Below, piece after piece: positions 3,109 through 28,519 of a stretch of 33,095 nucleotides of DNA; the first letter of the stretch is position 1, and each line of letters starts with the position of its first letter. The DNA is from a virus. The position numbers and the translations under genes were made by a program. The notes beneath the pieces were generated by a model. The model was not told the origin of the DNA and did not search any database. It saw only the letters and a program-made list of their open reading frames with translations. The stretch is taken from the IMG/VR virus record IMGVR_UViG_3300045988_124089, one strand, 5' to 3'.

Positions 3109-3909
3109 ATGAGAAACATGGCTACCATCGCGATCATCAACCTCAAGGGCGGCGTCGGCAAGTCCGTCACCGCTTGCAATCTGGCCTGTATCCTGTCCGG
3201 TATCTACGGCCGGCGGGTGCTGGTCATGGATCTGGACAAACAGGCAAACACCACCAAGTTTTTCGAGCGTGTCCAGAGTGGACACCAGAAGACCATCGCC
3301 GACGTGCTGACGCTGGACGCAAAGCTCAGCGATGTCATCGTACATACCGGATGGCCGGACATCGACCTCGCGCCTAGCAACATGCAGTTGCTGCTCGCCA
3401 ATCAGAGCGTGATGTTTGATCTGGCCCGGCGGCGTGAAGACCGCGTCCGGCGGGCGCTGGCACCCTACCGCACGGAATACGACTACTGCATTATCGACTG
3501 CCCGCCCGATATCGACATGGCCACCATCAACGCGCTGGTCGAGGCCGATTGGGTCATCATCCCGGTGGACTGCGACGAGTGGGCGCTGGATGGCCTGAGC
3601 GAGATCATGGAACAGATCCGGGCCGTCAAGGCCGAGTACAACGAGCGATTGGAAATCATGGGCACACTGGCCACCAAGTACGACCGGGGCCGCTACTCCA
3701 CCAAGACCATCAACCAGCTCGTCAATCTGGATATCCCGACCTTCCGGGCCGATGATGGCGCGGTGCTGCACATCGATAGCAGCGTCCGGGTGAAGGAGTC
3801 GAAGGCATTCCACCGGCCTCTGTACCAGTACGCGCCGAAATGTAGGCCCGCCGCTCAGTATAAGACGCTGGCGGAAAAAGTGATGGAGATCGCGGAGGGA
3901 CAAAAATGA
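3109..3909 (+). CDS. parA: ParA/Soj-family partition ATPase
   Basis: Deviant Walker A IINLKGGVGKSVTACNLA, then VLVMDLDKQANTT and IIDCPP. GGAGG RBS at 3096-3100. ATGA coupling to the next gene. Confidence 0.85.
   Translation: MRNMATIAIINLKGGVGKSVTACNLACILSGIYGRRVLVMDLDKQANTTKFFERVQSGHQKTIADVLTLDAKLSDVIVHTGWPDIDLAPSNMQLLLANQSVMFDLARRREDRVRRALAPYRTEYDYCIIDCPPDIDMATINALVEADWVIIPVDCDEWALDGLSEIMEQIRAVKAEYNERLEIMGTLATKYDRGRYSTKTINQLVNLDIPTFRADDGAVLHIDSSVRVKESKAFHRPLYQYAPKCRPAAQYKTLAEKVMEIAEGQK
3269..3285. repeat. Palindrome copy 1: GTGTCCA-GAG-TGGACAC (inside parA-like CDS)
   Basis: Exact 7-bp inverted half-sites. Member of a 5-copy family (3269, 6581, 13397, 23235, 28503). Confidence 0.9.
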
Positions 3910-4292
3910 AAACGGTTGGTGAACTTATTCGAATAGAAAGAAAAAAGCAGGGGATAACGCAGTTGGAACTTGGCAAAAGATGCGGAATGGATGGTTCCGC
4001 AATACGAAAATATGAATCAGGAAAAATAACCCCAAAATTTGAAACGGTGGCTAAAATTTCAGAAGCGTTAAATCTGAGACTTGAAGATTTTTATCCAAAA
4101 CTGGGCGAAGCCTCTACTGCAAAATGGGAATATGCCAAAAATTTGGCATGGGTCAGCCCGGACAGAAGAACGACGGAGCCTGTCGTCCGGTGCTCGAATT
4201 GTCATGCGAGTATGTCGGAAAGCGAATATCTCCGGTATATTTGGAACTATTGCCCGGTTTGCGGCAAAAAAATGGAGGATGCGACAGAATGA
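3906..4292 (+). CDS. XRE-family HTH protein with C-terminal zinc ribbon
   Basis: ELIRIERKKQGITQLELGKRCGMDGSAIRKYESGKITPKFETVAKISEALN is a classic XRE HTH. The C-terminus has CSNC...CPVCG. The gene is visibly AT-rich versus its neighbours and has ATGA overlaps on both sides. Confidence 0.75.
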   Translation: MKTVGELIRIERKKQGITQLELGKRCGMDGSAIRKYESGKITPKFETVAKISEALNLRLEDFYPKLGEASTAKWEYAKNLAWVSPDRRTTEPVVRCSNCHASMSESEYLRYIWNYCPVCGKKMEDATE

Positions 4293-5395
4293 GCACCGGA
4301 TTAGTACATAGCCTTCTGGACGCACAGCCGTCCACCCCGGCGGGGGAGCCGCCGCTGAAAGTGGTCATGATCGACCGCAAAAACATCATCGTCAACCCGG
4401 ACAACCACAAAATCTACGTCATCGGGGATGTCTCCCGGCTAAAAGAGGATATCAAGACCAACGGCATCCGGCAGCCGCTGGAAGTGGTCGATCTGGAGGA
4501 TGGCAATTACAAGCTGATCGGCGGCGAGCGGCGTCTGACCGCTTGCGAGGAGCTGGCCAAAGAGGGCGATACCCGCTTCAACGCGCTGCCCTGCGTCATC
4601 CTCAAGCTCAAGAATGACGATGACGACAAGATCGCGCTCATCACGGCCAACGCCACCGCCCGCGAGCTGACCGACGGCGAACGTCTGGCACAGTATGAGG
4701 CCCTCAAGGAGATTCTGACGCGCCGGAAGAAAAACGGCCAGCTCCAAGGTAAGGTGCGGGACGAGCTGTGCAGAATCCTCGGCCTGAGCGCGGGGGCGGC
4801 GGCCCGGCTGAATGCCATTTCCGAGAATTGCGATCCAAGTACAATACACCAGATGCGAATTGGAAACATCACATTTACCGGAGCATATAAGCGGGCGCAG
4901 GAAATTATCGAAGCCAAAAAGCCGCCTGTGGAGCCGCCCAAACCGGATAAACCGGTGTACGAAAAGCCCGTCGTTTTTGACTGCGCGCCAAAGGCGGCGG
5001 AAACGATACCGCAGAATCCCGATTATGACGAGTGGAACCTTCCACCAGAGTGCCGGGTAGCCGTGGAAAAGGCAAACCGTGAAGCGGCCCAGAAGCAGGA
5101 AGAACAGAAGCGCGGAAAGAAGACACTGCGGTTGCTGGCAGAAAAAACGCTGAAAGAAGATGCGCCGTGGGAACTGGCATGGGAAGATGTACAGTTTGGG
5201 CTTGAATATTACAAACAGCCTCTTCCCGGCGGGGCGAAGCTCTGGAAACGTGTGGATGAAACCAGAAGAGGAGCCGGTCAGACCTGCGATGATTATGCGA
5301 TCATTTTGCAAGATAACAAGTTTTATACCTGTGGATGGATTTCGTTTTATTCCGGGATCACTGACCTGCTGACACAATATTTTGAGTTGAAATAA
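4289..5395 (+). CDS. parB: ParB/Spo0J-like N-terminal-domain protein
   Basis: Start ATG 4289 overlaps the upstream stop. Motifs IRQPLEVV....YKLIGGERRLTA (ParB box with GERR). The long C-terminal part is unassigned. The upstream ORF extension 4124-4288 was rejected because it overlaps the HTH gene. Confidence 0.75.
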   Translation: MSTGLVHSLLDAQPSTPAGEPPLKVVMIDRKNIIVNPDNHKIYVIGDVSRLKEDIKTNGIRQPLEVVDLEDGNYKLIGGERRLTACEELAKEGDTRFNALPCVILKLKNDDDDKIALITANATARELTDGERLAQYEALKEILTRRKKNGQLQGKVRDELCRILGLSAGAAARLNAISENCDPSTIHQMRIGNITFTGAYKRAQEIIEAKKPPVEPPKPDKPVYEKPVVFDCAPKAAETIPQNPDYDEWNLPPECRVAVEKANREAAQKQEEQKRGKKTLRLLAEKTLKEDAPWELAWEDVQFGLEYYKQPLPGGAKLWKRVDETRRGAGQTCDDYAIILQDNKFYTCGWISFYSGITDLLTQYFELK

Positions 5396-5411
5396 ATAAG
5401 GAGGAACCACA

Positions 5412-5864
5412 ATGACGCCGCTGAAGCCGAGAGAGTTACGGAAGCTGTATGCGATACCTTATGACATCGAGAAGCGCCAGCGGCGCATTGAACAGTTGGA
5501 GGCGCTGCAATCCGATGGGCCGCAGAGTGCTTCCGATGTGGTCAAGTCTTCCAGCGGCGAGGGAAATGCCTGTATCCTGAGTCATGCGACCGTGACGGGT
5601 ACGGATGCCTCTTTTACCCGGCGGGAAGATGAGATCAGGCGGCTCAAGGAGATCAACGCCGACCAAAAGGCGAAATACCTATACGGCCAGCGGCTCATTG
5701 AGAGCTGCGACGACTGCGAGCTCAGGGCCTTGCTGACGGCGATCTGTTCACAGGGAAAGAAGCCGCAGGATGTGGCCGTGGAGCTCATGGAGCAGGGCGT
5801 GGATATCGGGTCAGAGGCCATTCGTCGGCGAGTCGAACGGTGGATCAACCAGAATGCGAGGTAA
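5412..5864 (+). CDS. Putative late-gene transcriptional regulator (ArpU/RinA/DUF1492-like, sigma-region-4-like C-terminus)
   Basis: AAGGAGG RBS. Coiled N-terminal part and a C-terminal helix-rich segment (LRALLTAICSQGKKPQDVAVELMEQG...IRRRVERW). Its position just upstream of the packaging operon is typical for such regulators. Weak, pattern-based call. Confidence 0.35.
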   Translation: MTPLKPRELRKLYAIPYDIEKRQRRIEQLEALQSDGPQSASDVVKSSSGEGNACILSHATVTGTDASFTRREDEIRRLKEINADQKAKYLYGQRLIESCDDCELRALLTAICSQGKKPQDVAVELMEQGVDIGSEAIRRRVERWINQNAR

Positions 5865-5913
5865 GATTTTGGACAGAGAAGCATCTACATGATTTTAGAG
5901 AAGGAGGAGTAAA

Positions 5914-6318
5914 ATGAAACTGATTATTGCGAACAACGGTAAAGCGACTATCAATGCGGATTATATTGTGAGCATGAAATGCTTATATACCAAACAACTT
6001 TCCACGGGCGAAGAAAGATATTCCATTGTAGCTGACACGATAAACGATAAAAATTATGTTATTCAAGATGGTCTCACGGAAAGCGAAGCGACCCGACGCC
6101 TTGAAAAAATTGCAAACTATATTGTCCCCGATGAAAGCTTTGTAATTTCGTTTGGAGAAAACAACGGGGTTTATAGTTGCATTTGCAAAAAAGAAAAAAC
6201 AAATTGTTTGATGTGCGATAATTACGGCGGCCATGGAAAATGCAAAATGGCCGCCGCTGTATGCGAATCGAACGACATAAAAACATGTTGCAGATATTAC
6301 CGGGAGAAGGAAGATTGA
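5914..6318 (+). CDS. Hypothetical protein, Cys-rich C-terminus, AT-rich orphan gene
   Basis: AAGGAGGAG RBS at 5901-5909. 134-aa ORF with 10 Cys in the last ~50 residues (CICKKEKTNCLMCDNYGGHGKCKMAAAVCESNDIKTCC). Strong drop in GC relative to the flanks. Confidence 0.6.
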   Translation: MKLIIANNGKATINADYIVSMKCLYTKQLSTGEERYSIVADTINDKNYVIQDGLTESEATRRLEKIANYIVPDESFVISFGENNGVYSCICKKEKTNCLMCDNYGGHGKCKMAAAVCESNDIKTCCRYYREKED

Positions 6319-6346
6319 AACTTCTACGATAATGCGTAAATTCCGT

Positions 6347-6396
6347 GTCCGATTTGTCCGAAATGTCCGATTTGTCCGAAATGTCCGGAATGTCCG
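6347..6396. repeat. Six GTCCG motifs at exact 9-bp phasing (18-bp unit GTCCGATTTGTCCGAAAT x2 plus 2 more)
   Basis: GTCCG starts at 6347, 6356, 6365, 6374, 6383 and 6392. The array abuts and overlaps the -35 position of the promoter at 6406-6414. Confidence 0.85.
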
Positions 6397-6405
6397 TTTT
6401 TGTTA

Positions 6406-6414
6406 TGCTATAAT
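6406..6414 (+). promoter_or_regulatory. Extended -10 promoter element TGcTATAAT (candidate late promoter, no recognisable -35)
   Basis: TATAAT at 6409-6414 preceded by TG at 6406-6407. The -35 position reads CGGAAT, inside the GTCCG array, which suggests activator dependence. Confidence 0.45.
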
Positions 6415-6580
6415 CATAATGCGGTTATTGGGTGAGACATCCAGACCGCTCATTGTGGATTCGAAGACTCCCGGCGGGAAACATAGCACGGCGATGGAAC
6501 GACGTGCTCAATGGGAATTGCGCCGTCCGCTCCAAAACCCAGCGGCGTATGACCAACAAGACAACACTTCCACCCGGCGG

Positions 6581-6597
6581 GTGTCCATTGTGGACAC
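6581..6597. repeat. Palindrome copy 2: GTGTCCA-TTG-TGGACAC (late leader)
   Basis: Exact half-sites. With the flanking G/C it can form an 8-bp hairpin (6580-6598). Confidence 0.9.
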
Positions 6598-6607
6598 CTT
6601 ACGATAT

Positions 6608-6716
6608 GCTGTTGAGCTCACACAATGGCAGAGTACCACTTGCACAGTGCAAGACAGCATTGACGTAAGACGTTACGTTGATGCGGGTGACGGTTCGAAT
6701 CCGTCCGACAGCACCA
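6608..6716 (+). ncRNA. tRNA-like element (non-canonical, 109 nt including encoded ACCA)
   Basis: - Acceptor: 6608-6614 GCTGTTG pairs with 6706-6712 CGACAGC (7 bp, one G-U).
- D arm: GCTC/GAGT at 6616-6619/6631-6634, with A14, GG and A21 in the loop.
- T arm: GACGG-TTCGAAT-CCGTC at 6689-6705.
- 3' end: discriminator A plus CCA at 6713-6716.
- Deviations: only 1 nt between acceptor and D stem; the anticodon arm is replaced by a CTTGC/GCAAG hairpin (6639-6653); an extra 12-bp hairpin sits at 6657-6684. Confidence 0.45.
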
Positions 6717-6781
6717 GACGCGCACCCTTTGAGGGGGCGGCGCGAATAGCGGAGCATCTGGCCGCGAAAGTTCCAGATGCA

Positions 6782-6852
6782 GCGGAACCTTATCTCTTGA
6801 GCCTTCTGGTGAAATTGATATGCGGTGGAATGCAAGGTTCCGCTTATTTTTA
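6782..6852 (+). terminator. Terminator/attenuator-like hairpin immediately upstream of the HNH gene
   Basis: GCGGAACCTT (6782-6791) pairs perfectly with AAGGTTCCGC (6834-6843) and is followed by TTATTTTTA. The 42-nt enclosed loop is atypically large. Confidence 0.4.
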
Positions 6853-6870
6853 TGCAAACGAGGCGGACAC

Positions 6871-7164
6871 ATGGCAAAGGAATATGCACAAGCGTTTTAT
6901 AAAAGCAAGACGTGGCAGCAGTGCCGGGACGCTTATGCTGCCAGTGTGGGCGGGCTGTGTGAGGAGTGCCTGAAGGATGGCATCATCACAGCGGGCGAGA
7001 TCGTTCACCACAAAATCCATGTGTCACCTGATACCATACAAAACCCGGATGTCCTGTTAAATTGGAATAATCTGGAGTTGGTCTGTCGGAGTTGTCATCT
7101 AAAATTACATGGCAATCAGAAAAGATATTCGGTTGACCCGGCGGGGCGTGTGATTCCGCGCTGA
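6871..7164 (+). CDS. Phage HNH endonuclease (packaging-associated)
   Basis: MAKEYAQAFYKSKTWQQCRDAY...CEEC...AGEIVHHKIHV...NLELVCRSCHLKLH gives CxxC...HH...N...CxxCH. GAGG RBS 7 nt upstream. It lies directly before terS/terL, as in HK97-like cos phages. Confidence 0.85.
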   Translation: MAKEYAQAFYKSKTWQQCRDAYAASVGGLCEECLKDGIITAGEIVHHKIHVSPDTIQNPDVLLNWNNLELVCRSCHLKLHGNQKRYSVDPAGRVIPR

Positions 7165-7288
7165 AATTTTGCGCATACTCCCCCCTGTCAAAAATATTTT
7201 GCTAACCACAGGAGACCGAGGGGCAAGGTTCATTTTTCCGCTCTCAGGATCTCAGGAATTTTTTTGGAAAGAAAGGAGTTGCAGGAAG
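7165..7288. other. Candidate cos / terminase recognition region
   Basis: Non-coding gap between HNH and terS, with a C-run (CTCCCCCCTG, 7179-7188) and tandem CTCAGGA x2 (7243-7257). The location is typical for cos in HNH-dependent packaging. No ends can be seen from sequence alone. Confidence 0.25.
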
Positions 7289-7633
7289 TTGGCGCAGAAA
7301 AGCACGACTTGTTCGAAATTGCTCCGAATGGCAAAGGATTACGGCGTGGAAAAAAACGCCCTTTTCCTGCAAGCCGTGGAGCAGTACGACGTTCAGGCGC
7401 GGGTGATCCAGAACATCAAAAACGCGCTGGACGAAGAGGATGGCCACCTTGTTACCTCGAAGGAGTATGTCAAGGGCCGTGAGAATATCTATGCAAACCC
7501 ACTGGTCAAAGAGCTGCCGAAGCACGCCGACGCGGCAAACCGCACACTCCAGACCATGTTGACCATCATCGAAAAGCTGGGAAAGGCCCCGGAGCCGAAA
7601 GACCGGCTGACGGAGATGCAGAAAGATGGATAA
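7289..7633 (+). CDS. terS: Terminase small subunit (P27-like)
   Basis: In-frame TTG 7289 lies 10 nt after GAAAGGAG (alternative ATG 7328). About 100-115 aa, overlaps the terL start, and has the C-terminal ...KLGKAPEPKDRL typical of P27-type terS. Confidence 0.6.
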   Translation: MAQKSTTCSKLLRMAKDYGVEKNALFLQAVEQYDVQARVIQNIKNALDEEDGHLVTSKEYVKGRENIYANPLVKELPKHADAANRTLQTMLTIIEKLGKAPEPKDRLTEMQKDG

Positions 7634-9275
7634 CTACATCTTTTCCTACTATCAGGCCATTGAGGACGGCTCCATCGTTGTGGGCCAGTGGATCAAACGA
7701 TTCTACCGCTATATTGTGAAGGGACTGCAAGAGCAGTCCTTTTTCTTTGACCAAAAACGCGCCTCCAAAGCGATCCGCTACATCGAAACATTCTGCCACC
7801 ACAGCGAAGGACGCTCTGACGTCATCAAGCTGGAACTGTGGCAGAAGGCTTTTGTTTCGGTGGTGTTCGGCATTCTGGACGGCAACGGAAACCGGCAGTT
7901 TCGCGAGGTCGTGCTCATTATGGCACGCAAGAACGGCAAAACGCTGTTTGCGTCGGCGATCATTTCCTATTGCACCTTTCTGGATGGCGAGTATGGTGCG
8001 AAGACCTTTTGCGTTGCGCCAAAGCTGGATCAGGCCGATTTGGTCTATGAGGCGTTTTGGCAGAGCACCGTCAACGAGCCGGAGCTTGCCCGGCGCATCA
8101 AGCGGCGCAAGTCTGACTTGTATGTGGCCGAGAGCAACAGCTCTATCAAAAAGATTGCTTTTAATGCAAAAAAATCTGATGGTTTTAATCCCTCGCTGAC
8201 CATCTGCGATGAGATCAGCTCATGGCCCGGCGATCAGGGCCTCAAGCAATACGAGGTCATGAAATCGGCCCTCGGTGCCCGGCGTCAGCCGCTGATCCTG
8301 AGCATTTCCACGGCGGGCTACATCAACGAGGGAATCTATGATGAGCTCATCAAGCGCAGCACCCGCTTTTTGCTGGGCGATTCCCGCGAAAAGCGGCTTG
8401 CGCCGTTTCTGTACATGATCGACGACATTGGCAAGTGGAACGATATCAACGAGCTGCGCAAATCCAACCCAAACCTCGGCGTTTCGGTCTCGGTGGACTA
8501 CCTGCTGGAAGAGATTGCCGTGGCAGAAGGGAGCCTTTCCAAAAAGGCGGAATTTATCACAAAATACTGCAACATCAAGCAGAACAGCTCACAGGCATGG
8601 CTCCCGACCGACGCCGTGGAAAAGTGCAGCGGAGAGCGCTTGAACTTCGAAAACTTCCGCTCCAGCTACTGCGTGGGCGGCATCGACCTGTCCCGAACCA
8701 CCGACCTGACCGCTTGCGTCGCCGTGGTCGAGAAAAACGACCGACTGAAAGTTTTCGCACAGTTTTTCCTTCCCAGCGAAAAGCTGGAAGAAGCCACGGC
8801 CCGCGATGGTCTGCCGTATCCGCTGTATGTCCAGCGTGGTCTGCTGAAACTGTCCGGCGAGAATTTCGTGGATTATCACGACTGCTTCGATTGGTTCCGA
8901 ATGCTGGTGGAGCAGTACCAGATTCTGCCGCTCAAGGTCGGATATGACCGCTATACCGCGCAGTATCTGGTGCAGGACATGGAAAACTATGGTTTTCAGA
9001 TGGATGACGTTTTTCAGGGCTTCAACCTGACGCCGGTCATCCGCGAGACCGAGGGCTTGATGAAAGATGGCGTGTTTGACATCGGCGACAACGACCTTCT
9101 CAAGGCCCACCTCCTCAACATGGGCATGAAGATGGATGTCGAGAGCGGGCGGATGCGCCCCGTCAAAATCAGCGTCAATGACCACATCGACGGCGGTGCC
9201 GCCCTGCTGGATGCTATGACCGTTCGGCAGAAGTGGGGCGCAGAGATCGGCCAGCAACTGAAAAACAAGGAGTGA
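7626..9275 (+). CDS. terL: Terminase large subunit
   Basis: 549 aa. Walker A-like LIMARKNGKT, Walker B/coupling ICDEISSW, and a C-terminal nuclease region with GIDLS...D. Canonical position. Confidence 0.93.
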   Translation: MDNYIFSYYQAIEDGSIVVGQWIKRFYRYIVKGLQEQSFFFDQKRASKAIRYIETFCHHSEGRSDVIKLELWQKAFVSVVFGILDGNGNRQFREVVLIMARKNGKTLFASAIISYCTFLDGEYGAKTFCVAPKLDQADLVYEAFWQSTVNEPELARRIKRRKSDLYVAESNSSIKKIAFNAKKSDGFNPSLTICDEISSWPGDQGLKQYEVMKSALGARRQPLILSISTAGYINEGIYDELIKRSTRFLLGDSREKRLAPFLYMIDDIGKWNDINELRKSNPNLGVSVSVDYLLEEIAVAEGSLSKKAEFITKYCNIKQNSSQAWLPTDAVEKCSGERLNFENFRSSYCVGGIDLSRTTDLTACVAVVEKNDRLKVFAQFFLPSEKLEEATARDGLPYPLYVQRGLLKLSGENFVDYHDCFDWFRMLVEQYQILPLKVGYDRYTAQYLVQDMENYGFQMDDVFQGFNLTPVIRETEGLMKDGVFDIGDNDLLKAHLLNMGMKMDVESGRMRPVKISVNDHIDGGAALLDAMTVRQKWGAEIGQQLKNKE

Positions 9276-12890: not shown

Positions 12891-13347
12891 CCCGCCCAGC
12901 GGCATGAAGATCACCAAGAATGGAGTTACCTACCAGTCCAACATCGACCGGACCAAGTACACCATTCAGGAACTCAGCCGCGCCGCCCTCCGCGATGTTG
13001 GCAAGTACGTCGTCAAACAGACCCGTACTGCATCCGGTGCCCGCAAGCACATGGGCAGACTCACCATCAAGTCCCGCTTTTATGGCAAAAGCGGGGCTTT
13101 TTCGTGGTGGGTGAGAAAGAAAGAGACCGACCTTCAAGTCGGAATCAAACACAATACATGGTACGGCGTATTGCAGGAACTCGGCGACGGAAACCAGCCG
13201 CCTAAGAAAATCCTGACGACCGCCGTACAGGAAAACATTGATGAGATACGCAGGATAGAGGGACACTACCTGTCCGCCGTCGAGGACGAAAACCGCGCCC
13301 TCGGCCTGATCGATGACGAGGAGATGGAGCCAAATGACACCGACTAG
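12877..13347 (+). CDS. HK97 gp10-like tail-attachment/neck protein
   Basis: Start ATG 12877 or 12883. The motif NTWYGVLQELGDGNQPPKKILTTAVQEN resembles HK97 gp10-family 'a.y...lE.G......p.PflrpA'. Confidence 0.6.
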   Translation: MKMANPPSGMKITKNGVTYQSNIDRTKYTIQELSRAALRDVGKYVVKQTRTASGARKHMGRLTIKSRFYGKSGAFSWWVRKKETDLQVGIKHNTWYGVLQELGDGNQPPKKILTTAVQENIDEIRRIEGHYLSAVEDENRALGLIDDEEMEPNDTD

Positions 13348-13711
13348 TACCACCTTCGAGCGGTTTACCGCTGCCATTGGCGAAAAACTCCGCGAAGTGT
13401 CCACAGTGGACACCGTTTTCTACGAGCGGAGCCGCGAGGCGGGCTTTCCGCGCATCTGCTACACCGCGACGGTGTGGACGAGCGACAGCACCCTTCGCGG
13501 CACCCTGTCCTGCACCATCTCCGGCAATGGTCTGCCCTCTGAGGTGGACCATATCGCGCAGACCCTGCTGGATGAGTTGAATGTTTTTTCTTCTTGCTCC
13601 GACGAGCTGACCTATTATCTCTACAACGGCAGGACTGCCCCTGTTGAGGATAGTGACAAGAGCGTCACTATCCGACTTTTGACATTTGAGTTTTTAGCGA
13701 TGGGAGGTTAA
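13334..13711 (+). CDS. Tail completion/terminator-like protein
   Basis: 125 aa, called by position between the neck genes and the major tail protein. Contains palindrome copy 3. Confidence 0.45.
   Translation: MTPTSTTFERFTAAIGEKLREVSTVDTVFYERSREAGFPRICYTATVWTSDSTLRGTLSCTISGNGLPSEVDHIAQTLLDELNVFSSCSDELTYYLYNGRTAPVEDSDKSVTIRLLTFEFLAMGG
13397..13413. repeat. Palindrome copy 3: GTGTCCA-CAG-TGGACAC (inside tail gene)
   Basis: Exact copy, translated as V-S-T-V-D-T. Confidence 0.9.
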
Positions 13712-23225: not shown

Positions 23226-23266
23226 AATCCCCCGGTGTCCACAGTGGACATCGGGGGATTTTTTGT
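23226..23266 (+). terminator. Strong intrinsic terminator (contains palindrome copy 4, 23235-23251)
   Basis: AATCCCCCG-GTGTCCA-CAG-TGGACAT-CGGGGGATT forms a ~16-bp stem followed by a T-run. Confidence 0.85.
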
Positions 23267-23280
23267 TATACGGATTTTTT

Positions 23281-23316
23281 CAGCGCCTGTGCATTTTTTG
23301 CATGGGCGCTTTTTTG
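23281..23316 (+). terminator. Second, tandem intrinsic terminator
   Basis: AGCGCC...GGCGCT stem with an internal TGCA/TGCA, followed by TTTTTTGTTTC. Confidence 0.55.
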
Positions 23317-23399
23317 TTTCTTTCGTTGCGCACTCCCTGCGCACTCGCATCCGGCCATACTGCTACACTTAGGCCACAAAAGCAAGGGAGGATTGCGAT

Positions 23400-23804
23400 A
23401 TGGGTATGTATGACGGTTGGTCACATCCGAATCAGTACAACCGCCAGCCGTACAACGGATACGGCCAGATGCAGCAGCCGCAGGTGGCGCAAAACCCGTT
23501 TCTGATGGTGCCGACCATCGCGGATGTGGACAAGGTGGTTGCTCAAGCAGGGGAGACCCGCTGGATCATGGTGCAAAACGATGCGGTCATCGCGGTCAAG
23601 ACGGCCAATGCGATGGGATACGCGACCACGGAGTACTACCGGCTGTCAAAGTTCGACCCGGCGGCCATGCAGACACCGGCACCGGGCTGCAACTATGTGA
23701 CCGAGCAGCAGATGGAAGAGCGGATCAACGCCGCGATCTCTCAGGTGATGAGTCAGATGCAGCCTGTTCCCGCCGCAAAATCCACCCGGACTAAGGAGGC
23801 ATAA
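23400..23804 (+). CDS. Cargo cassette gene A: hypothetical, Q/N/Y-rich N-terminus
   Basis: 134 aa with GGGAGGA RBS. N-terminus NQYNRQPYNGYGQMQQPQVAQNP. Confidence 0.6.
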   Translation: MGMYDGWSHPNQYNRQPYNGYGQMQQPQVAQNPFLMVPTIADVDKVVAQAGETRWIMVQNDAVIAVKTANAMGYATTEYYRLSKFDPAAMQTPAPGCNYVTEQQMEERINAAISQVMSQMQPVPAAKSTRTKEA

Positions 23805-23806
23805 CG

Positions 23807-24034
23807 ATGAGTAACCCGCTGATGCAGTTCATGGGCGGCGGTGCGCCGTCCGGCCTTCCCGGCCCTCTGGGCAACATGGCGCAGATTTTGCAGCAGTTCC
23901 AGCAGTTCCGGGCCTCTTTTAAGGGCGACCCGAAGCAACAGGTGGAGATGCTGCGGAAGTCCGGTAAGATGTCGGATGCTCAGTATCAGCAACTGGAGGC
24001 AATGGCCAAGCAGATCATGCCCTTCCTCAAGTAG
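23807..24034 (+). CDS. Cargo cassette gene B: small Q-rich helical protein
   Basis: 75 aa with AAGGAGG RBS. Sequence MSNPLMQFMGGGAPSG...ILQQFQQFRASFKGDPKQQVEMLRKSGKMSDAQYQQLEAMAKQIM. Confidence 0.6.
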   Translation: MSNPLMQFMGGGAPSGLPGPLGNMAQILQQFQQFRASFKGDPKQQVEMLRKSGKMSDAQYQQLEAMAKQIMPFLK

Positions 24035-24093
24035 TCGGAGAGTTGTGCGCACAACTTGAAATATATTCACAATTCGCAAGAAAGGAAATCAAT

Positions 24094-24732
24094 ATGGACA
24101 ATATGAGTCTTAGCGATATCGCTGCCGTGACCCGTGGCAACGATAACGACGGCTGGGGACAGGGCGGCGCGTGGTGGATCATCATCCTCTTCCTGTTCGT
24201 CTTTATGGGCGGCGGTGGCCTGTGGGGCAACCGTCAGGGCGAGTATGGTCAGTATGCCACTGCGGCAAGCCAGCAGGAAATCCTCTATGGCCAGCAGTTC
24301 GGCCAGATCAACGACCGCCTGACCAACATCGGCAACGGTATCTGTAATCTCGGCTATGAGATGCAGGGCAACATCGGCCAGCTCGGCAAGGAAGTTGCTC
24401 TGGCACAGGCTGGTACCAACACCACCATCCTCCAGACCGGAAACAGCATCCAGAGCCAGCTCGCACAGTGCTGCTGCGACAACCGTCTGGCAACGGCCAA
24501 TCTGTCCGCTCAGATGGACAAGCAGACCTGCGCGATCAACTCCAACATCGACGCGAAGTTTGCCGAACTCCAGAAGAACCAGCTTGAGCAGACCATCGCG
24601 GCACAGGCCCAGCGCATCAACCAGTTGGAACTCCAGAGCCAGATGACCAACGTTGTGCGGTATCCTAACGGGTACACCTACAACGCAGGGCCGTCGCCCT
24701 TCTGCGGCTGCAATGGCTGTGGCAACATCTAA
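24094..24732 (+). CDS. Cargo cassette gene C: membrane-anchored Q/N-rich coiled-coil protein with Cys-rich C-terminus
   Basis: ATG 24094. Gly/Trp segment plus TM (GGAWWIIILFLFVFMGGGGLWG), long Q/N-rich repeats, a CCC motif, and the C-terminal sequence FCGCNGCGNI. Confidence 0.6.
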   Translation: MDNMSLSDIAAVTRGNDNDGWGQGGAWWIIILFLFVFMGGGGLWGNRQGEYGQYATAASQQEILYGQQFGQINDRLTNIGNGICNLGYEMQGNIGQLGKEVALAQAGTNTTILQTGNSIQSQLAQCCCDNRLATANLSAQMDKQTCAINSNIDAKFAELQKNQLEQTIAAQAQRINQLELQSQMTNVVRYPNGYTYNAGPSPFCGCNGCGNI

Positions 24733-24759
24733 CATCTGACGCCCTATCGGCGAGGACAC

Positions 24760-24792
24760 GCGGGGCGGCAAAAGCTGCTCCGCTTATTTTTT
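24760..24792 (+). terminator. Intrinsic terminator/attenuator between cassette genes C and D
   Basis: GCGGGGCGGC-AAAA-GCTGCTCCGC forms a 10-bp stem (2 G-U pairs) followed by TTATTTTTT. Confidence 0.65.
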
Positions 24793-24807
24793 AAGGAGGA
24801 TATGACT

Positions 24808-25206
24808 ATGTCTAGGTCTGCTATCTATACCGCCAATACCACCCCCACCGCTCTCGCGGTCGGCAGCATCATCCCCGTGGGAACCACGGTGCGCCGTTTC
24901 GGTAAGTGCATCCGGCAGGACGGCAACACCATCACGCTGGCCGGGCCCGGCTACTATCTGGTCAACGCCTCGGCCACCGTTGCACCCACCGCCGCCGGTA
25001 CGGTCTCCGTTACCGGCCAGAAGGACGGCGTCGCTGTGATTGGTGCCACTGCGGCCGCCACTACGACCGTAGCAGCCGAATCGGCAAATCTGTCGCTGGA
25101 TTTCATCGTCCTCAATGTCGGCTGCGGCAGTTCCATCCTGTCCTTTATGCTGGGCGGCGCAGATTCTACGGTCTCCAATCTGGCCGTGACCGTCACCAAG
25201 CTGTGA
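24808..25206 (+). CDS. Cargo cassette gene D: beta-rich protein, BclA-C-terminal/C1q-TNF-like pattern
   Basis: ATG 24808 lies 8 nt after GGAGG (alternative 24802). The pattern FGKCIRQDGNTITLAGPGYYLVNASATVAP..GTVSVTGQKDGVAVIG...LSLDFIV......SILSF resembles BclA-CTD-type jelly rolls. Recognition by eye only. Confidence 0.4.
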   Translation: MSRSAIYTANTTPTALAVGSIIPVGTTVRRFGKCIRQDGNTITLAGPGYYLVNASATVAPTAAGTVSVTGQKDGVAVIGATAAATTTVAAESANLSLDFIVLNVGCGSSILSFMLGGADSTVSNLAVTVTKL

Positions 25207-25219
25207 GGAGGTAACTGCC

Positions 25220-25729
25220 ATGTGTTACGATGATCTGCGTGCACGCATGTGCAAGGAGCTTCATGATATCGAGGAGCGGGGGACATTCTGCCGCTGTGAT
25301 CTCGACGACGCCCACAAGCTGATCGAGAGCATCTGCGGCCTCGACGCCATGTCTGCCCCCGCTGAAGAGCACCACAAGGCAGACAAGCACGAAACCGCCC
25401 ACGTTGAGCACGCCGCTCATCCGGCGCACCTCACCCTAGAGGACGCGAAGCGCTGGACGTCCAAAATGCAAAACGCCGACGGCACCACCGGATCACACTG
25501 GACGCCGGATCAGACTAGCGCCGTGATGTCTCAGCGCGGGCTGTCCTATGATAAGGCCGATTTTTACGCGGCCATGAATATGATGTACTCCGATTACTGC
25601 ACGATTGCCAAGTCCTACGGCATCGATACCGCGAACTTTTACGCAGACCTCGCCGCCGCCTTTCTGACGGACAAGGACGCCGTGCCCGGCAAGATCGTGG
25701 AGTACTGGGAGACTATCGCGAGCGACTGA
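25220..25729 (+). CDS. Cargo cassette gene E: hypothetical, Cys pairs at N-terminus, His-rich linker
   Basis: 169 aa with GAGGAGG RBS. MCYDDLRARMC...CRC...ICG, then EEHHKADKHETAHVEHAAHPAH, then a conserved-looking C-terminal domain (NMMYSDY...FLTDKDA). Confidence 0.6.
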   Translation: MCYDDLRARMCKELHDIEERGTFCRCDLDDAHKLIESICGLDAMSAPAEEHHKADKHETAHVEHAAHPAHLTLEDAKRWTSKMQNADGTTGSHWTPDQTSAVMSQRGLSYDKADFYAAMNMMYSDYCTIAKSYGIDTANFYADLAAAFLTDKDAVPGKIVEYWETIASD

Positions 25730-25736
25730 AGTGCTC

Positions 25737-25758
25737 TGACTACTTTTTGACTACTTTT
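25737..25758. repeat. attP arm-type repeat pair TGACTACTTTT x2 (left arm)
   Basis: Tandem 11-mers at 25737 and 25748. The same motif is repeated at 25933 and 25944. Confidence 0.6.
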
Positions 25759-25785
25759 CGCACGTCAAAAGCTGAGACTATACGT

Positions 25786-25805
25786 TAGTATCTGCTAGTA
25801 TCTGC
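25786..25805. repeat. Tandem TAGTATCTGC x2
   Basis: Direct reading. Lies inside the attP region. Confidence 0.7.
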
Positions 25806-25821
25806 AACTCAAAATAAATAC

Positions 25822-25866
25822 AAAAAAGCGCATGACTGCTAAAAATTCAGCAATCATGCGCTTTTT
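25822..25866. terminator. Bidirectional intrinsic terminator
   Basis: A-run, then GCGCATGA...TCATGCGC (8 bp, with inner TGCT/AGCA), then T-run. Separates the cargo cassette from attP/int. Confidence 0.75.
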
Positions 25867-25870
25867 CCTA

Positions 25871-25895
25871 TAGTTGCGCCAGCAGGAGTCGAACC
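25871..25895 (-). other. Candidate attP core: 3' fragment of a tRNA gene (T-loop, T-stem 3' strand, acceptor 3' strand)
   Basis: The reverse complement reads GGTTCGACTCC-TGC-TGGCGCA-A-CTA. The upstream half of the tRNA is absent (the T-stem 5' strand does not pair). Located about 60 bp from the integrase stop. Confidence 0.55.
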
Positions 25896-25932
25896 TTTTG
25901 CGCATATCGCTTTTTCGTCATTTTATTGTTTT

Positions 25933-25954
25933 TGACTACTTCTTGACTACTTTT
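25933..25954. repeat. attP arm-type repeat pair TGACTACTTCT/TGACTACTTTT (right arm)
   Basis: Same orientation as the left pair. Overlaps the integrase stop codon. Confidence 0.6.
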
Positions 25955-27092
25955 ATTTATCCTCATCATCATAAAATTTAATCATTTTTTCGGTGGCATC
26001 TTTTAGCTTGCGCTCTCGGATATGAGTATATATTTTGTACGTTGTCGAGATGTCCGCGTGACCCATGATCTTTTTTGCCTCCAGCACTCCAACACCGGCA
26101 TCGTATAAGTCCGACGCGAACGAGTGCCGGAACTGGTGAGCCGTAACGGTTGGCTCCATTACAGGCGGCAATGGATTTTTAGTCGCTTTTGGGCCTCGGC
26201 GGCTATCTCTGTATCTTGTCTTGCTCTCACTCGGCTGAACGAGTCCCAGCTTCGTGCAATACGCAAGCCATCGGCTGTGATACTCTGCATCGGTTAAGGG
26301 CCTTGCCATGCCACCGATGATATATTCTGTCGGCTTGCCCCGGCGCGGCTCTATCTCTCGCTTGAGATGGGGCATAAGCGGGATGACCCGGACGCCGTTA
26401 TTGGTTTTAGGGCCCTGTATTTTGACACCGCCACCTGACCATGACACTTTTTTGCTGACATAGATTTTGTTACTTTCGAAATCTATGTCCTCCCATCGGA
26501 GAGCAATCAGCTCACCCAGACGGCAGCCGGTGTACATCAGCATCCATGCGCACAGCCCGAACCCTTCGGGATGCGCCCGGAAAAGAGCAAGCTCCTTGTC
26601 TGTAGGCGGTTCCCGGATAGCCGCGGGCTTCCCGGCGGGGGACTTGATATCCTGCATCGGATTGTAAGATGATCCGCTTGCAAGCCGCCACCCCCGGAAA
26701 ATCCCTCGCAATATGCTGATCGTGTTCCGAATGCTGCTCGTTGATAACCCCTCATCTTTGAGAGACTGCCCGAAACTTACGATCATGACCGGCGTAATTT
26801 CATCCATCCGTTTGCCCGAAAAAAATTGGACGCAACGTTCATAGTTAGACCTATATGTTGAGTCCGTCCCGTCTATGATGCGTTTGAGCAGCTTGTCCCA
26901 ATAATCAGCAGCAACAATTTCAAAAAGCTCTGCCTTACTTTCGGCTTCCGCTTTTTGGATTAGTGCTTCTTTGTATTTTGCCTCTGCTTCAGATTTTGTT
27001 TTTCCGTAAAAAAAGCGATATTTTCCATCCGGCATCTTTCGCTTGATCTGACAGCGCCCATCCGGGCGCATCCCTTTACTTTTTCTCGGCAT
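25953..27092 (-). CDS. int: Tyrosine integrase/recombinase
   Basis: 379 aa. N-terminal SAM-like/arm-binding region, then catalytic motifs TGCRLGEL (R), HQFRHSFAS (HxxR) and GHADISTTYKIYTH (Y). Confidence 0.93.
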   Translation of the reverse strand: MPRKSKGMRPDGRCQIKRKMPDGKYRFFYGKTKSEAEAKYKEALIQKAEAESKAELFEIVAADYWDKLLKRIIDGTDSTYRSNYERCVQFFSGKRMDEITPVMIVSFGQSLKDEGLSTSSIRNTISILRGIFRGWRLASGSSYNPMQDIKSPAGKPAAIREPPTDKELALFRAHPEGFGLCAWMLMYTGCRLGELIALRWEDIDFESNKIYVSKKVSWSGGGVKIQGPKTNNGVRVIPLMPHLKREIEPRRGKPTEYIIGGMARPLTDAEYHSRWLAYCTKLGLVQPSESKTRYRDSRRGPKATKNPLPPVMEPTVTAHQFRHSFASDLYDAGVGVLEAKKIMGHADISTTYKIYTHIRERKLKDATEKMIKFYDDEDK

Positions 27093-27678
27093 CTCTATTC
27101 ACATCCCTCACTGAATACGCATCATCGCCCCGGCGGGCTGCCTCGGTGCCGCAGTCACGAGCTTGATACATGATCGGCATAATGGGCTGTATGCCGTTTG
27201 GGTCTGGATCCCGGTCATTGGCATGATCCAGCTCATAGTTGGTCCCAATGGTGGAGCATACGGCCACACGGTTCGCAAGCGTGGTGTGCAGGTTGGCAAG
27301 CACCTCGGTCAGGACGCCCAGCGGGTCAGACCCATGATCTCCATAGTAGAGGTATAGCCAACCATCCACCTCGTAATCGGACATATCATCCACCACTGCG
27401 TGCAGTATCTGCCGCTTTTCCTCGGTGGTGATGTCGTCTTCCAGATACTCCAACAGGCCCGGATGGATACAGGCGTCTGTGTACCGCTTGGCCGGGACAC
27501 CGCACGAAACGCACCAATTGATAATATCGGCCAGCGTGACAGGGGAGGTCCCTTGCTCTCTGCCCGCAATGGTCGGGCGGCTTACGCCCATCCGCTTGGC
27601 AAGCCTTTCTTGACTGATTCCTGCCTTTGCCCGCGCCATTTCCAGAGCTTTGGCAACTCGTTTGTCATATTCGTTCAT
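27076..27678 (-). CDS. XRE-family HTH regulator with unassigned ~130-aa C-terminal domain, co-transcribed with int
   Basis: ATG 27678 with AAGGGGTGG RBS (alternative GTG 27687). HTH AGISQERLAKRMGVSRPTIAGREQG. Its 3' end overlaps the int start by 17 nt. Confidence 0.7.
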   Translation of the reverse strand: MNEYDKRVAKALEMARAKAGISQERLAKRMGVSRPTIAGREQGTSPVTLADIINWCVSCGVPAKRYTDACIHPGLLEYLEDDITTEEKRQILHAVVDDMSDYEVDGWLYLYYGDHGSDPLGVLTEVLANLHTTLANRVAVCSTIGTNYELDHANDRDPDPNGIQPIMPIMYQARDCGTEAARRGDDAYSVRDVNRDAEKK

Positions 27679-27711
27679 AATTTCCACCCCTTTTTCGACA
27701 ATTCCTCCTTT

Positions 27712-27733
27712 ACAGGATTTTATAAAAATCTGT
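27712..27733. promoter_or_regulatory. Imperfect palindrome ACAGGATTTTA/TAAAAATCTGT (operator-like) in divergent intergenic region
   Basis: 22-bp near-palindrome (2 mismatches) between the - strand XRE/int operon and the + strand small genes. Confidence 0.35.
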
Positions 27734-27805
27734 ATTGGATATTTTACAGCAGCCTATGTTATAACAAAGTTGTCAAAAATAACCAGCATAGGAGGTAAAA
27801 AAATA

Positions 27806-27910
27806 ATGGCTGCTACTATGTATGTACCCGACGATATGGAGATCATCGACGGGATGCCCGCATCAAAACCAAAAGACCCGGATCGCGTCCGGGCCCCATG
27901 GGAGGAATGA
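27806..27910 (+). CDS. Small hypothetical protein (34 aa)
   Basis: GGAGG RBS 10 nt upstream. Coupled to the next ORF. Confidence 0.35.
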   Translation: MAATMYVPDDMEIIDGMPASKPKDPDRVRAPWEE

Positions 27911-27912
27911 CC

Positions 27913-28113
27913 ATGCCGACCGATACTATGATACTGGGATACGCCCGCAACCGTACCCTGAAGCTCATCTATGTACTCGCTAATTATGGAGCCGACGCCG
28001 AGGTCTACGACGAAATGCTGCGTCTCGCACAGCAAGCCCGCGACGACCTCGATGCCGGACGTGATCCGGCGGATCGGCTGGCCGATATCAACGGAACCAT
28101 TGTTGAACTATAA
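27913..28113 (+). CDS. Hypothetical protein
   Basis: ATG 27913 lies 7 nt after GGAGG (alternatives 27898/27907). 66 aa, helical. Confidence 0.45.
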   Translation: MPTDTMILGYARNRTLKLIYVLANYGADAEVYDEMLRLAQQARDDLDAGRDPADRLADINGTIVEL

Positions 28114-28126
28114 GGAGGATATTTCT

Positions 28127-28396
28127 ATGAGCACGAAAAAAACTGTTGAGATGATGAAAAAAGATTGCTTGGATGATGTCAGTCGTTGGCTTTCGGAGAT
28201 GGAAGCGCGCGGCATGACTACCGAAGAGCTCGACCTTCGTATCGATCTTCTTCGCGCCGTCAACCGCTACCTTACGGAGAATGCACCGGTAACTACTACG
28301 GGCTACAATCTTGAAAGCCTGTATCCCTTTCACGGCTTCCCGATGTTCGCCCCTCCTTCCGGGGGAGCAGGTCCCTTTCCGAGCTCCGAAAGCTGA
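28127..28396 (+). CDS. Hypothetical protein
   Basis: AAGGAGG RBS. 89 aa. Confidence 0.5.
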   Translation: MSTKKTVEMMKKDCLDDVSRWLSEMEARGMTTEELDLRIDLLRAVNRYLTENAPVTTTGYNLESLYPFHGFPMFAPPSGGAGPFPSSES

Positions 28397-28502
28397 TTGG
28401 ACATCGCTTCTTTTGGGCCTTATTTTCGGCGCTACCGCAAAAAAGTGGAGCCAAAACAACTAATTTCGTTTCCCCGTCGTCACCCGGCGGCGGGGTTTTC
28501 AT

Positions 28503-28519
28503 GTGTCCACAGTGGACAC
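28503..28519. repeat. Palindrome copy 5: GTGTCCA-CAG-TGGACAC (between convergent genes)
   Basis: Exact copy. Preceded by CACCCGGCGG, as is copy 2. Confidence 0.9.

Follow-up and report, generated by a model that had tools for sequence, protein, structure and literature searches.

What are the five copies of one palindrome scattered over this phage genome for, and which protein do they serve? An earlier note on this DNA read them as parS-like sites of a ParB-like protein encoded by the phage, and named as an alternative binder an HTH/Zn-ribbon protein whose gene lies between parA and parB. The window, i.e. the whole stretch of 33,095 nucleotides that was analysed, has a 119-bp exact terminal overlap and therefore represents an assembly closed into a circle of 32,976 bp.

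Five palindromes around a circular genome

A motif scan of the window returned exactly five matches to GTGTCCA-N3-TGGACAC with up to two mismatches, four of them exact and one with a single mismatch (Table 1), as the earlier note had listed them, gene context included (parA, late leader, tail-region ORF, terminator and convergent genes). Its contention that they are not due to chance also holds: 100 dinucleotide-preserving shuffles of the window averaged 0.11 matches and never exceeded 2, and the half-site GTGTCCA is confined to the five palindrome places. Because the flanking sequences of the five copies are unrelated to each other, the palindrome is not part of a longer dispersed repeat. The gaps between copies around the circle are 3.3, 6.8, 9.8, 5.3 and 7.7 kb. 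As a separate observation, CCCGGCGG occurs 22 times, every time on the same strand.

Table 1. Coordinates of the palindromes and of the genes and elements discussed with them.
Feature	Position	Strand	Basis or context
Replication initiator, HTH_36, O/DnaD-like	2135..3082	+	domain and PHROG matches
ParA ATPase	3073..3909	+	AAA_31 E = 1e-48; phrog_164 ParA-like E = 2e-56
Palindrome 1, parS-like	3269..3285	.	spacer GAG, exact; inside parA (3073-3909)
HTH_3 + Zn-ribbon gene	3906..4292	+	inserted between parA and parB
ParB-family protein, 368 aa, proposed binder	4289..5395	+	Pfam ParB_N, phrog_4715, PDB ParB/Noc matches
Conserved cassette upstream of palindrome 2	6346..6414	+	repeats + extended -10
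Palindrome 2, parS-like	6581..6597	.	spacer TTG, exact; late-operon leader
Palindrome 3, parS-like	13397..13413	.	spacer CAG, exact; inside ORF 13313-13711, head-tail/tail region
Palindrome 4, parS-like	23235..23251	.	spacer CAG, last base T, one mismatch; after lysis genes
Tyrosine integrase	25953..27092	-	domain and PHROG matches
Palindrome 5, parS-like	28503..28519	.	spacer CAG, exact; between convergent genes beside lysogeny module

Individual copies are retained in relatives of the phage. The copy inside parA is kept with its GAG spacer in L121, L122, L124 and L126, palindrome 3 is kept in L122 and L124 with the spacer CTG (a synonymous change), and counterparts of palindrome 5 are present in L121, L122, L124 and L153. 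Palindrome 2 occupies the position that is most widely conserved across the family: all three ParB clades have a site 2.4-4.4 kb downstream of the start of parB. Palindrome 2 stands ahead of the HNH/terminase genes, and an ORF that overlaps it (6332-6973) is not conserved among relatives and looks spurious. Upstream lies a putative late promoter, a cassette of six direct TGTCCG repeats with a period of 9 followed by the extended -10 element TGcTATAAT (6406-6414). The cassette is also found in clade-ii relatives, and was not found in the one clade-iii leader looked at. Its repeat unit differs among relatives (CGACCG in L122 and L124, TGCACG in L127) while the palindrome stays constant, and a different protein must therefore bind the TGTCCG-type array.

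ParB and the distribution of the motif

The par genes lie downstream of the replication initiator gene in the same early operon and are translationally linked to it, the start of parA overlapping the end of the initiator gene, which has internal iteron-like tandem repeats (2538-2671). They are outside the lysogeny module and may not be expressed in a lysogen. ParA is a short form without an N-terminal HTH, with the Walker A motif NLKGGVGKS. In ParB an N-terminal ParB/Noc-type domain containing LIGGERRLTA precedes the helices of an HTH region, and the C-terminal domain is family-specific. The protein reaches 29.7 bits against Pfam ParB_N (gathering score 26.3), and matches phrog_4715 (E = 8e-31) and the PDB structures of ParB (4umk, E = 1e-5) and Noc (E = 3e-5). 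Against the NCBIfam canonical ParB model TIGR00180 and the Noc model it falls under the curated cut-offs, and its AlphaFold model is of poor quality. With a profile built from the family, the match to Noc reaches 1e-16 and that to Spo0J 2e-13, ParB/Spo0J falling in the range 1e-13 to 1e-14. The N-terminus of Spo0J stimulates ParA, as does the N-terminal Lys/Arg of ParB in other systems; the starts of ParB relatives (MSK/MAKGF..L) resemble that of Spo0J, and the N-terminus in the window's own clade is MSTGL, without Lys/Arg.

The earlier note had proposed a search for the motif in related phages with a homologous ParB, and among 79 viral loci picked only for a ParB relative the exact motif is present in 74, with 172 copies in 1.34 Mb where ~0.005 are expected; four of the five loci without it are truncated. 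A second sample of phages was drawn on terminase relatedness alone. Among its loci with 4.5 kb or more of upstream sequence, the motif was found in all 18 ParB+ loci and in none of the 10 ParB- loci; the terminase of some of these 10 is closer than that of the ParB+ clade. Faecalibacterium phage FP_Lugh, of the same host genus, has neither ParB nor motif. The motif is present in all the Subdoligranulum, Gemmiger and Faecalibacterium loci whose ParB is 44-58% identical, usually at most 80 bp upstream of parB, and six distant loci (L004, L041, L046, L056, L060 and L110) carry it at the parA|parB junction while having essentially only ParA (26-30% identity) and ParB (25-35%) in common with the window. 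Wherever the region is covered, ParB+ loci have ParA next to ParB. In L123/L162, where ParB is 78% identical, ParA is missing and the 10 kb to each side contain no motif. Multiple dispersed copies persist in several clades, at positions that are non-homologous between clades. With real gene calls, most sites fall between the genes of an operon (HNH|TerS, ClpP|capsid, after capsid). The phages bearing these candidate parS sites form a large Faecalibacterium-type group in which an integrase is carried as well.

The site also varies with the ParB clade, the more distant clades having variant palindromes at the parA|parB junction. With Lachnospiraceae-type ParBs and in the cultured Clostridium phage Saumur the palindrome there is GTGACCG-N3-CGGACAC; L138 and L140-142 have 2-3 dispersed copies of it and Saumur has a single one, so that dispersal of the sites is not universal. 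L137 carries GTGTCAG-AAA-CTGACAC, L143 carries both symmetric variants, and the predicted recognition helix of ParB differs by site class (RL(N/K)xI versus RME(S/A)I). Co-occurrence with ParB, position at the parA|parB junction and co-variation with the clade together give strong support to reading the palindromes as parS-like. On these patterns we consider it highly probable that ParB binds the five palindromes; that they are its cognate parS sites with a role in partition is a reading towards which we lean with rather less assurance.

Partition and its alternatives

We infer that the likeliest role of the sites is the positioning or segregation of circular phage DNA. The HTH domains of a ParB dimer would grip the two 7-bp arms, whose centres are separated by 10 bp and which thus lie on the same helix face. 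By analogy with ParB, Noc and KorB, the protein would use its GERR box to bind CTP, and would close as a clamp and spread from each site, and with sites every 3-10 kb this spreading could cover the whole 33-kb circle. ParA would act on the ParB-site complex, positioning or segregating a circular replicating genome, a form that would follow infection or excision or belong to a plasmid-like carrier state. The window phage appears solely as 33-34 kb contigs, with different permutations, and the identical integrase protein is found only on contigs of that size. A relative with a ParB 59% identical occurs as ~35-kb contigs and also, in integrated form, in a contig of 237 kb. Given this relative and the tyrosine integrase, the group does not consist of obligate plasmid-prophages like N15, and the need for a centromere in inheritance is not obvious.

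A live rival, though on balance the less likely one, is that ParB binds the sites mainly to control or silence transcription rather than for segregation, as KorB of RK2 or BisD of ICEclc do; ParB clamps at the late-leader site and at operon junctions might repress or time the late and lysis genes, and ParA might be an accessory, like IncC. The sole position conserved across the three clades is indeed the late-operon leader, where the predicted late promoter of the window lies ~160 nt upstream of the palindrome, but elsewhere the non-homologous positions suit spacing or coverage better than control of specific promoters. The mostly intergenic sites of the family would fit operon control, whereas two of the five in the window are inside coding sequence, distant from any predicted promoter. 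Location of the par genes in an early lytic operon and the integration of a relative also favour regulation, and KorB is a ParB-family regulator with dispersed sites. BisD is another already known (PMC12409273). The retention of ParA beside ParB in every covered ParB+ locus is most simply accounted for by cargo positioning.

Far less probable is a dedicated role in recombination or module exchange, in which a phage recombinase would cut or pair the palindromes. The homology shared with six relatives stops exactly at 6600, 3 bp past palindrome 2, and that with L121 and L153 at 28522, 3 bp past palindrome 5, and NinB/Orf and SSB are encoded by the phage. By these boundaries the shared 17-mers evidently act as module-exchange points between related phages, but conserved 17-mers under selection would turn into crossover points passively. 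The 3-bp spacer is unlike the 6-8 bp overlap of tyrosine-recombinase cores and equally unsuited to serine-recombinase cores, and the parA|parB position and the co-variation with ParB would go unexplained. We give slightly less credence still to RNA hairpins (terminators, attenuators or transcript stabilisers) to which ParB would be irrelevant. Some palindromes do appear to double as hairpin terminators: palindrome 4 is the tip of a terminator (23226-23260) with a 16-bp stem and then a T run, palindrome 3 was marked as a weak terminator-like hairpin, and at 18912 in L153 the arrangement GGC[palindrome]GCC+TTTTT lies between protease and capsid genes. A proper U tract is found at palindrome 4 only, however, and palindrome 5 lies between convergent genes behind a separate terminator (28472-28495), 6 bp past the stop of 28526-29158 (minus strand). 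The sequence of the arms, beyond mere pairing, is conserved across relatives with proteins only 25% identical, the conserved variant GTGACCG-N3-CGGACAC is asymmetric with an A-A mismatch in any stem, and strict ParB co-occurrence would be left without explanation. Least probable of all are operators of another regulator (the HTH/Zn-ribbon protein or a CI-like repressor), a host-wide repeat, or chance, the last excluded by the shuffles. Several HTH proteins are encoded (3906-4292, 27076-27687, 29607-29957), but the motif was not found in the divergent switch region around 29957-30530, and distant motif-bearing loci share essentially ParA and ParB alone with the window. The HTH/Zn-ribbon protein was rejected as binder: L121, L122, L126 and L127 have 4-5 motif copies without the gene, which among motif-bearing relatives occurs in the window and L124 only and on this distribution is outside the conserved par system. 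As for a host-wide repeat, no locus in the metagenome sample has more than two copies, and contigs >100 kb have single copies, except the ParB-linked L264.

Relation to known systems

If the sites are parS, their scatter repeats the design of the dispersed centromeres of phage-plasmid N15, here in integrase-carrying Faecalibacterium-type phages. The analogy with N15 drawn earlier was accurate: N15 has four single palindromes, IR1-4, of the form GTGCGACC-NN-GGTCGCAC, which likewise start with GTG and end with CAC (PMC7205306). N15 is also a temperate siphovirus, with SopA/SopB and, in place of one clustered centromere, several single palindromic sites spread over its genome. It differs in being a linear plasmid-prophage without integration, whereas the window phage has a tyrosine integrase and an integrated relative; in the geometry of its sites, 8-N2-8 as against 7-N3-7 (often 8-N1-8); and in host, that of the window phage being a Gram-positive gut anaerobe. 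ParA of the window is a short Soj-like form and not of the long SopA type, which has an N-terminal HTH.

The chromosomal Soj/Spo0J-parS system of Firmicutes and its paralogue Noc-NBS give the best sequence matches to the N-terminal and HTH region of ParB, and share with the window the GERR CTP box, a short ParA with KGGxGKS and multiple dispersed palindromic sites, some within genes; the start of Spo0J, too, resembles that of the window ParB's relatives (MAKGF..L). In contrast, the C-terminal domain of the window's ParB family is distinct and variable, the curated TIGR00180 and Noc cut-offs are not reached, and the site is unrelated to TGTTNCACGTGAAACA, which was not found in the window with up to three mismatches. 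KorB is a ParB-family CTP clamp that acts at a distance by sliding, and KorB-IncC (RK2) and BisD (ICEclc), systems in which such clamps regulate globally or at long range, resemble the window in having a ParB-family protein with several specific sites across a mobile element. With BisD, the element is integrated and long-range action is by sliding (PMC12409273). In the window phage, however, no KorA/BisC-type partner was found, sites are not seen at promoters, the late leader excepted, and no close homology is detectable. In RedRock-type mycobacteriophages, parABS serves prophage maintenance. These extrachromosomal prophages likewise belong to temperate phages with parA, parB and parS (for context, PMC7157519), but there parABS stands in place of the integrase and parS forms a cluster beside parB, whereas the window phage combines an integrase with parAB and dispersed sites.

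Replicon organization, the palindromes and the Par proteins

The two ends of the window (55% G+C) overlap exactly, which indicates a closed circular assembly with a true length of 32,976 bp, and an identical integrase was found on two other contigs, of 33,031 and 34,054 bp, that have different break points. The genes follow the order of a temperate HK97-like siphovirus, with a lysogeny module (a tyrosine integrase and two HTH repressor-like genes), an early operon (NinB/Orf, SSB, a replication initiator with internal iterons, ParA, an HTH/Zn-ribbon gene and ParB) and, after the latter, the late order HNH-terminase-portal-protease-capsid-tail-lysis. Within the early operon, parA and parB are coupled to the replication initiator. 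The nearest named relative, the Faecalibacterium phage FP_Lugh, has the endolysin region alone in common with the window (86%), and related ParB proteins occur in named genomes of Subdoligranulum, Gemmiger and Faecalibacterium. The iteron-like tandem repeats within the initiator gene (AGTGGCAAAACGCCACT about 2.6 times, a 23-bp variant 2.7 times and AATACTACTGGG 2.8 times) are probably the origin. The region adjoining the 3' end of the integrase gene holds short direct repeats (TGACTACTTTT, TAGTATCTGC and TTGACTACTTC, two copies each) and a hairpin with a 20-bp stem, and is a candidate attP with arm-type sites.

Coordinates of features in the window
Feature	Coordinates (strand)	Remarks
Terminal overlap	1-119 and 32977-33095	exact, 119 bp; signature of circular contig, k=119 assembly
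Replication initiator	2135-3082
Iteron-like tandem repeats	2538-2671
ParA	3073-3909 (+)
Site 1	3269-3285	exact motif
HTH/Zn-ribbon protein	3906-4292 (+)
ParB	4289-5395 (+)	N-terminus at 4289-4303
Candidate late activator gene	5914-6318
TGTCCG array with extended -10	6346-6414
Site 2	6581-6597	exact motif
tRNA-like element	6608-6716
ORF holding site 3	13313-13711
Site 3	13397-13413	exact motif
Terminator stem holding site 4	23226-23260	16-bp stem
Site 4	23235-23251	final T
Candidate attP region	25737-25952
Hairpin in candidate attP region	25822-25867
Tyrosine integrase	25953-27092
Terminator before site 5	28472-28495
Site 5	28503-28519	exact motif

An earlier note on this DNA had claimed five dispersed copies of the palindrome GTGTCCA-N3-TGGACAC, and a search allowing up to two mismatches returned exactly five matches, four exact and one with a final T. 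Its view that they are not due to chance also stands, dinucleotide-preserving shuffles of the window giving a mean of 0.11 matches. The 7-mer GTGTCCA is absent from the window outside these five sites, and the flanking DNA of the five copies is mutually unrelated. The placements that it had described were likewise recovered: site 1 within parA; site 2 in the non-coding late leader; site 3 inside a gene; site 4 as the tip of a terminator; and site 5 between convergent genes. A conserved TGcTATAAT element precedes site 2 by ∼160 nt, HNH endonuclease, TerS and TerL genes follow it, and site 5 comes directly after a terminator. The five sites are spaced 3.3-9.8 kb apart on the 32,976-bp circle, a minimum gap of at least 3.3 kb having, by our own calculation for the window alone, a probability of ∼0.06. 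The 7-N3-7 geometry sets the arm centres 10 bp apart, and the spacer is often of the form X-N-X', giving an 8-N1-8 palindrome, in data that are redundant.

The assignment of ParA and ParB-like proteins to the phage was sound as well. ParA has the deviant Walker A motif NLKGGVGKS, in agreement with the type I ParABS pattern KGGxxK[ST], lacks an N-terminal HTH and matches AAA_31 (E = 1e-48), CbiA (E = 5e-20) and the ParA-like phrog_164. ParB has a GERR box, LIGGERRLTA, in agreement with the type I pattern GxxRxxA, and passes the Pfam ParB_N gathering score (29.7 vs 26.3). It matches the structures of H. pylori ParB and Noc; its family profile reaches 1e-16 against Noc and 1e-13 to 1e-14 against Spo0J/ParB, the matches of this profile to Noc, ParB and Spo0J structures spanning E = 1e-16 to 1e-11. 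Scores fall below the cut-offs for canonical ParB/Spo0J (TIGR00180, 30.2 bits vs 58.45) and for Noc (TIGR04285, 36.7 vs 315), and we therefore regard the protein as a divergent member of the ParB-CTPase fold rather than a canonical Spo0J. For the HTH DNA-binding domain expected after the N-terminal domain, the alignment to H. pylori ParB (4umk) extends to residue 178, and an AlphaFold2 model from a 25-sequence alignment, poor overall (pLDDT 55, pTM 0.36), has helices 129-210 at pLDDT 70-83; the C-terminal part differs among relatives. In type I ParABS, an N-terminal Lys/Arg peptide of ParB stimulates ParA. The predicted N-terminus in the window's clade is MSTGL, invariant in 25 sequences and without a basic residue, and MSKGF, MAKGF or MAKKF in more distant relatives; the putative ParA-stimulating basic residue is thus missing from ParB of the window's clade.

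Co-inheritance of the palindrome with ParB

The association between motif and ParB was assessed in three samples, none of them chosen for the motif. The earlier note had suggested a motif search in relatives with homologous ParB, and among the viral loci selected by ParB, 74 of 79 hold at least one exact motif, amounting to 172 copies in 1.34 Mb vs ∼0.005 expected. In three of the five motif-less loci the sequence runs on for under 3.7 kb past parB, a fourth is a fragment of 7 kb, and the fifth (L162; L-numbers denote loci compared with the window) has ParB without ParA. Among loci selected by terminase, counted where at least 4.5 kb of upstream sequence was available, the motif is present in all 18 with ParB and in none of the 10 without, and several phages of the latter kind have a terminase nearer to the window's than that of the ParB-bearing clade. 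Named-genome loci selected by ParB (44-58% identical) carry the motif in seven of seven cases, and most of them (L129-L131 and L134) have a copy, mismatched at no more than one base, in the 80 bp preceding the parB match. FP_Lugh, which has no ParB, has no motif. These phages thus appear to have, as in ParABS, specific palindromic sites that go with the par operon and are inherited together with its ParB.

Two loci deserve separate mention. L123, the same contig as L162, encodes a ParB 78% identical to that of the window, with ParA absent and no motif site within 10 kb on either side. L125 (7 kb) has a ParB relative without the motif, and four clustered GGGAAA-N3-TTTCCC palindromes lie at 3967-4047 between a rep fragment and parA.

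The position and sequence of the sites also follow ParB. Some loci recovered by scanning viral contigs for the motif have ParA (26-30% identity) and ParB (25-35%) as their only clear similarity to the window, and in L004, L041, L046, L056, L060 and L110 the motif lies between parA and parB or directly upstream of parB. The exact motif is missing from ParB relatives at 31-34% identity, which have variants of it at the parA-parB junction. GTGTCAG-AAA-CTGACAC is found at this junction in L137, GTGACCG-ATT-CGGACAC in two to three dispersed copies per 20 kb in L138 and L140-142, both symmetric variant forms in L143 and, in the cultured Clostridium phage Saumur, GTGACCG-AAT-CGGACAC between the genes annotated as ParA and ParB. 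The pattern across the family is GTGnnnn-N3-nnnnCAC, and the predicted ParB recognition helix is distinct in each of two site classes. The HTH/Zn-ribbon protein, which the earlier note offered as another binder, is encoded in the window and L124 only and so is not the common binder. As judged from sequence, the five palindromes are very probably the cognate binding sites of the phage ParB.

Distribution of the sites and their possible roles

Three clades keep multiple sites, at non-homologous positions. The window's clade has them inside parA and in the late leader, as well as ∼7-9 kb before and ∼8-9 kb after the start of parB; in a clade at 50% identity they lie 33 bp, 3.8 and ∼7.5 kb upstream of parB and 2.47 and 8.04 kb downstream; and in the third clade there is mostly one, 2.9-4.4 kb downstream of the parB start. 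The sole position common to all three is the late leader, and most sites fall between genes of an operon when the gene calls of the pipeline are used. In a motif scan of metagenome contigs (at least 120 loci), the matches listed have at most two copies per locus, and those on contigs over 100 kb are single copies except in the ParB-linked L264; most metagenome matches are expected to be due to chance. A host-wide repeat of the REP or uptake type would have a similar density in host DNA and in unrelated phages of that host; the motif is absent from FP_Lugh and from the 10 terminase-selected loci without ParB. With respect to lifestyle, ParB P0109 was found in identical form on ∼35-kb contigs and inside a 237-kb contig adjoining an integrase, which implies that relatives integrate. 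For the integrase of the window, close homologues come only from contigs of at most 36 kb, which is suggestive but not conclusive of a free circular phage form; a homologue at 55%, on contigs of Mb size, is part of an unrelated phage that lacks ParB.

The earlier proposal of parS-like sites for the phage ParB has thus gained co-occurrence, synteny and co-variation with ParB; the partition role we infer, and we lean towards the sites acting with ParA to position or segregate the circular phage genome. N15 SopB with IR1-4 is the closest known system (PMC7205306). As in N15, several single palindromic ParB sites are dispersed in a temperate phage genome, here also in the window's relatives, but N15 is a plasmid-only prophage with no integrase, whereas the window phage has a tyrosine integrase, and ParA type, site geometry and host differ too. 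A mainly regulatory role, like that of KorB or BisD, is a less probable alternative. The sites of a KorB-type regulator would be expected at or near the promoters of several operons; a promoter is predicted near site 2 only, ∼160 nt upstream of it, and a consensus promoter scan, weak evidence for this organism, gave no match beside the other four sites. We consider it quite improbable that ParB-parS in these integrating gut-Clostridia phages is, as a whole, a genome-wide CTP-clamp system and not a centromere. ParB would then load at module boundaries, gate late transcription from the leader site, reinforce terminators and mark the exact points of module swaps between phages, with ParA merely positioning the ParB complex; such a system would amount to a phage equivalent of KorB or BisD with an additional influence on mosaic evolution.

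The palindromes might instead act as RNA hairpins, as several copies are incorporated in terminator-like hairpins, including site 4 and a copy at 18912 of L153 between the protease and capsid genes. However, the arm sequence itself is conserved beyond pairing, a conserved asymmetric variant would disrupt the stem, and site 5, between convergent genes, comes after a terminator of its own. The GC-rich stem and U tract of an intrinsic terminator are present at site 4 alone, site 3 is a weak match, and sites 1, 2 and 5 have no T run. Since copies are built into such hairpins, dual use as ParB site and hairpin is likely. Two sites also coincide with the ends of homology. Blocks of blastn homology to L126, L127, L153, L154, L094 and L044 break off at 6600, 3 bp beyond site 2, and those to L121 and L153 do so at 28522, 3 bp beyond site 5; the switch from the same early module and leader to different late modules falls exactly on the palindrome. 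By these alignments, palindromes 2 and 5 mark apparent junctions of early/late module exchange, which we take to reflect passive crossover at a 17-mer conserved by selection; a spacer of 3 bp is not known from site-specific recombinase cores. A cos or pac site is ruled out by the five copies and by the same leader cassette preceding different terminase modules.

As probable ParB-binding sites, the palindromes provide a concrete parS, GTGTCCA-N3-TGGACAC, together with variants for related clades, in a ParB family found on many human-gut viral contigs (the 79 ParB-selected loci). Annotations of parA and parB in Faecalibacterium/Gemmiger phages (PMC12323421) and a survey of prophage ParBs (PMC12704722) have been published; we found no earlier description of the ParB site of these phages, and literature searches with the motif string returned primer noise only. 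Why an integrase-bearing phage with an integrating relative keeps a partition-type system with several dispersed sites can now be tested, and there may be practical uses for the site and its variants, as orthogonal ParB/parS labelling pairs or as module-boundary markers in gut phage genomes.

A strand-biased motif and the late leader cassette

The short motif CCCGGCGG occurs 22 times in the window, from 284 to 30877, always on the + strand and never on the - strand (shuffle mean 2.3), with some copies within minus-strand genes (integrase, repressors). One copy (6573-6580) abuts site 2 and another (28483-28490) is 13 nt before site 5. In relatives placed in the ParB orientation, the + strand carries 12-23 copies per 20 kb and the - strand none; the two strands of FP_Lugh carry 12 and two, and few or no copies occur in Lachnospiraceae-type relatives. 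The motif resembles a polar motif of the Chi type belonging to hosts or phages of the Faecalibacterium group; the string was not found in the literature together with Chi or AddAB.

In the late leader, six direct TGTCCG repeats with a period of 9 adjoin the extended -10 element TGcTATAAT. A cassette of this type is kept in L007, L044, L061, L094, L103, L121 and L126, where the palindrome follows 235-265 bp later; the array unit is CGACCG in L122 and L124 and TGCACG in L127. The array as a set of ParB half-sites is ruled out by this variation of its unit between relatives while the palindrome is constant. Among seven close relatives compared, the gene preceding the array occurs only with TGTCCG arrays (window, L121 and L126), which makes it a candidate late activator. 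Directly after site 2 lies a tRNA-like element with a 7-bp acceptor stem (GCTGTTG/CGACAGC), a T arm (GACGGTTCGAATCCGTC), a 3' ACCA and a long internal insert; ARAGORN and Rfam gave no match in the window or late leader. Another tRNA-like sequence occupies the position of this element in L122 and L124.
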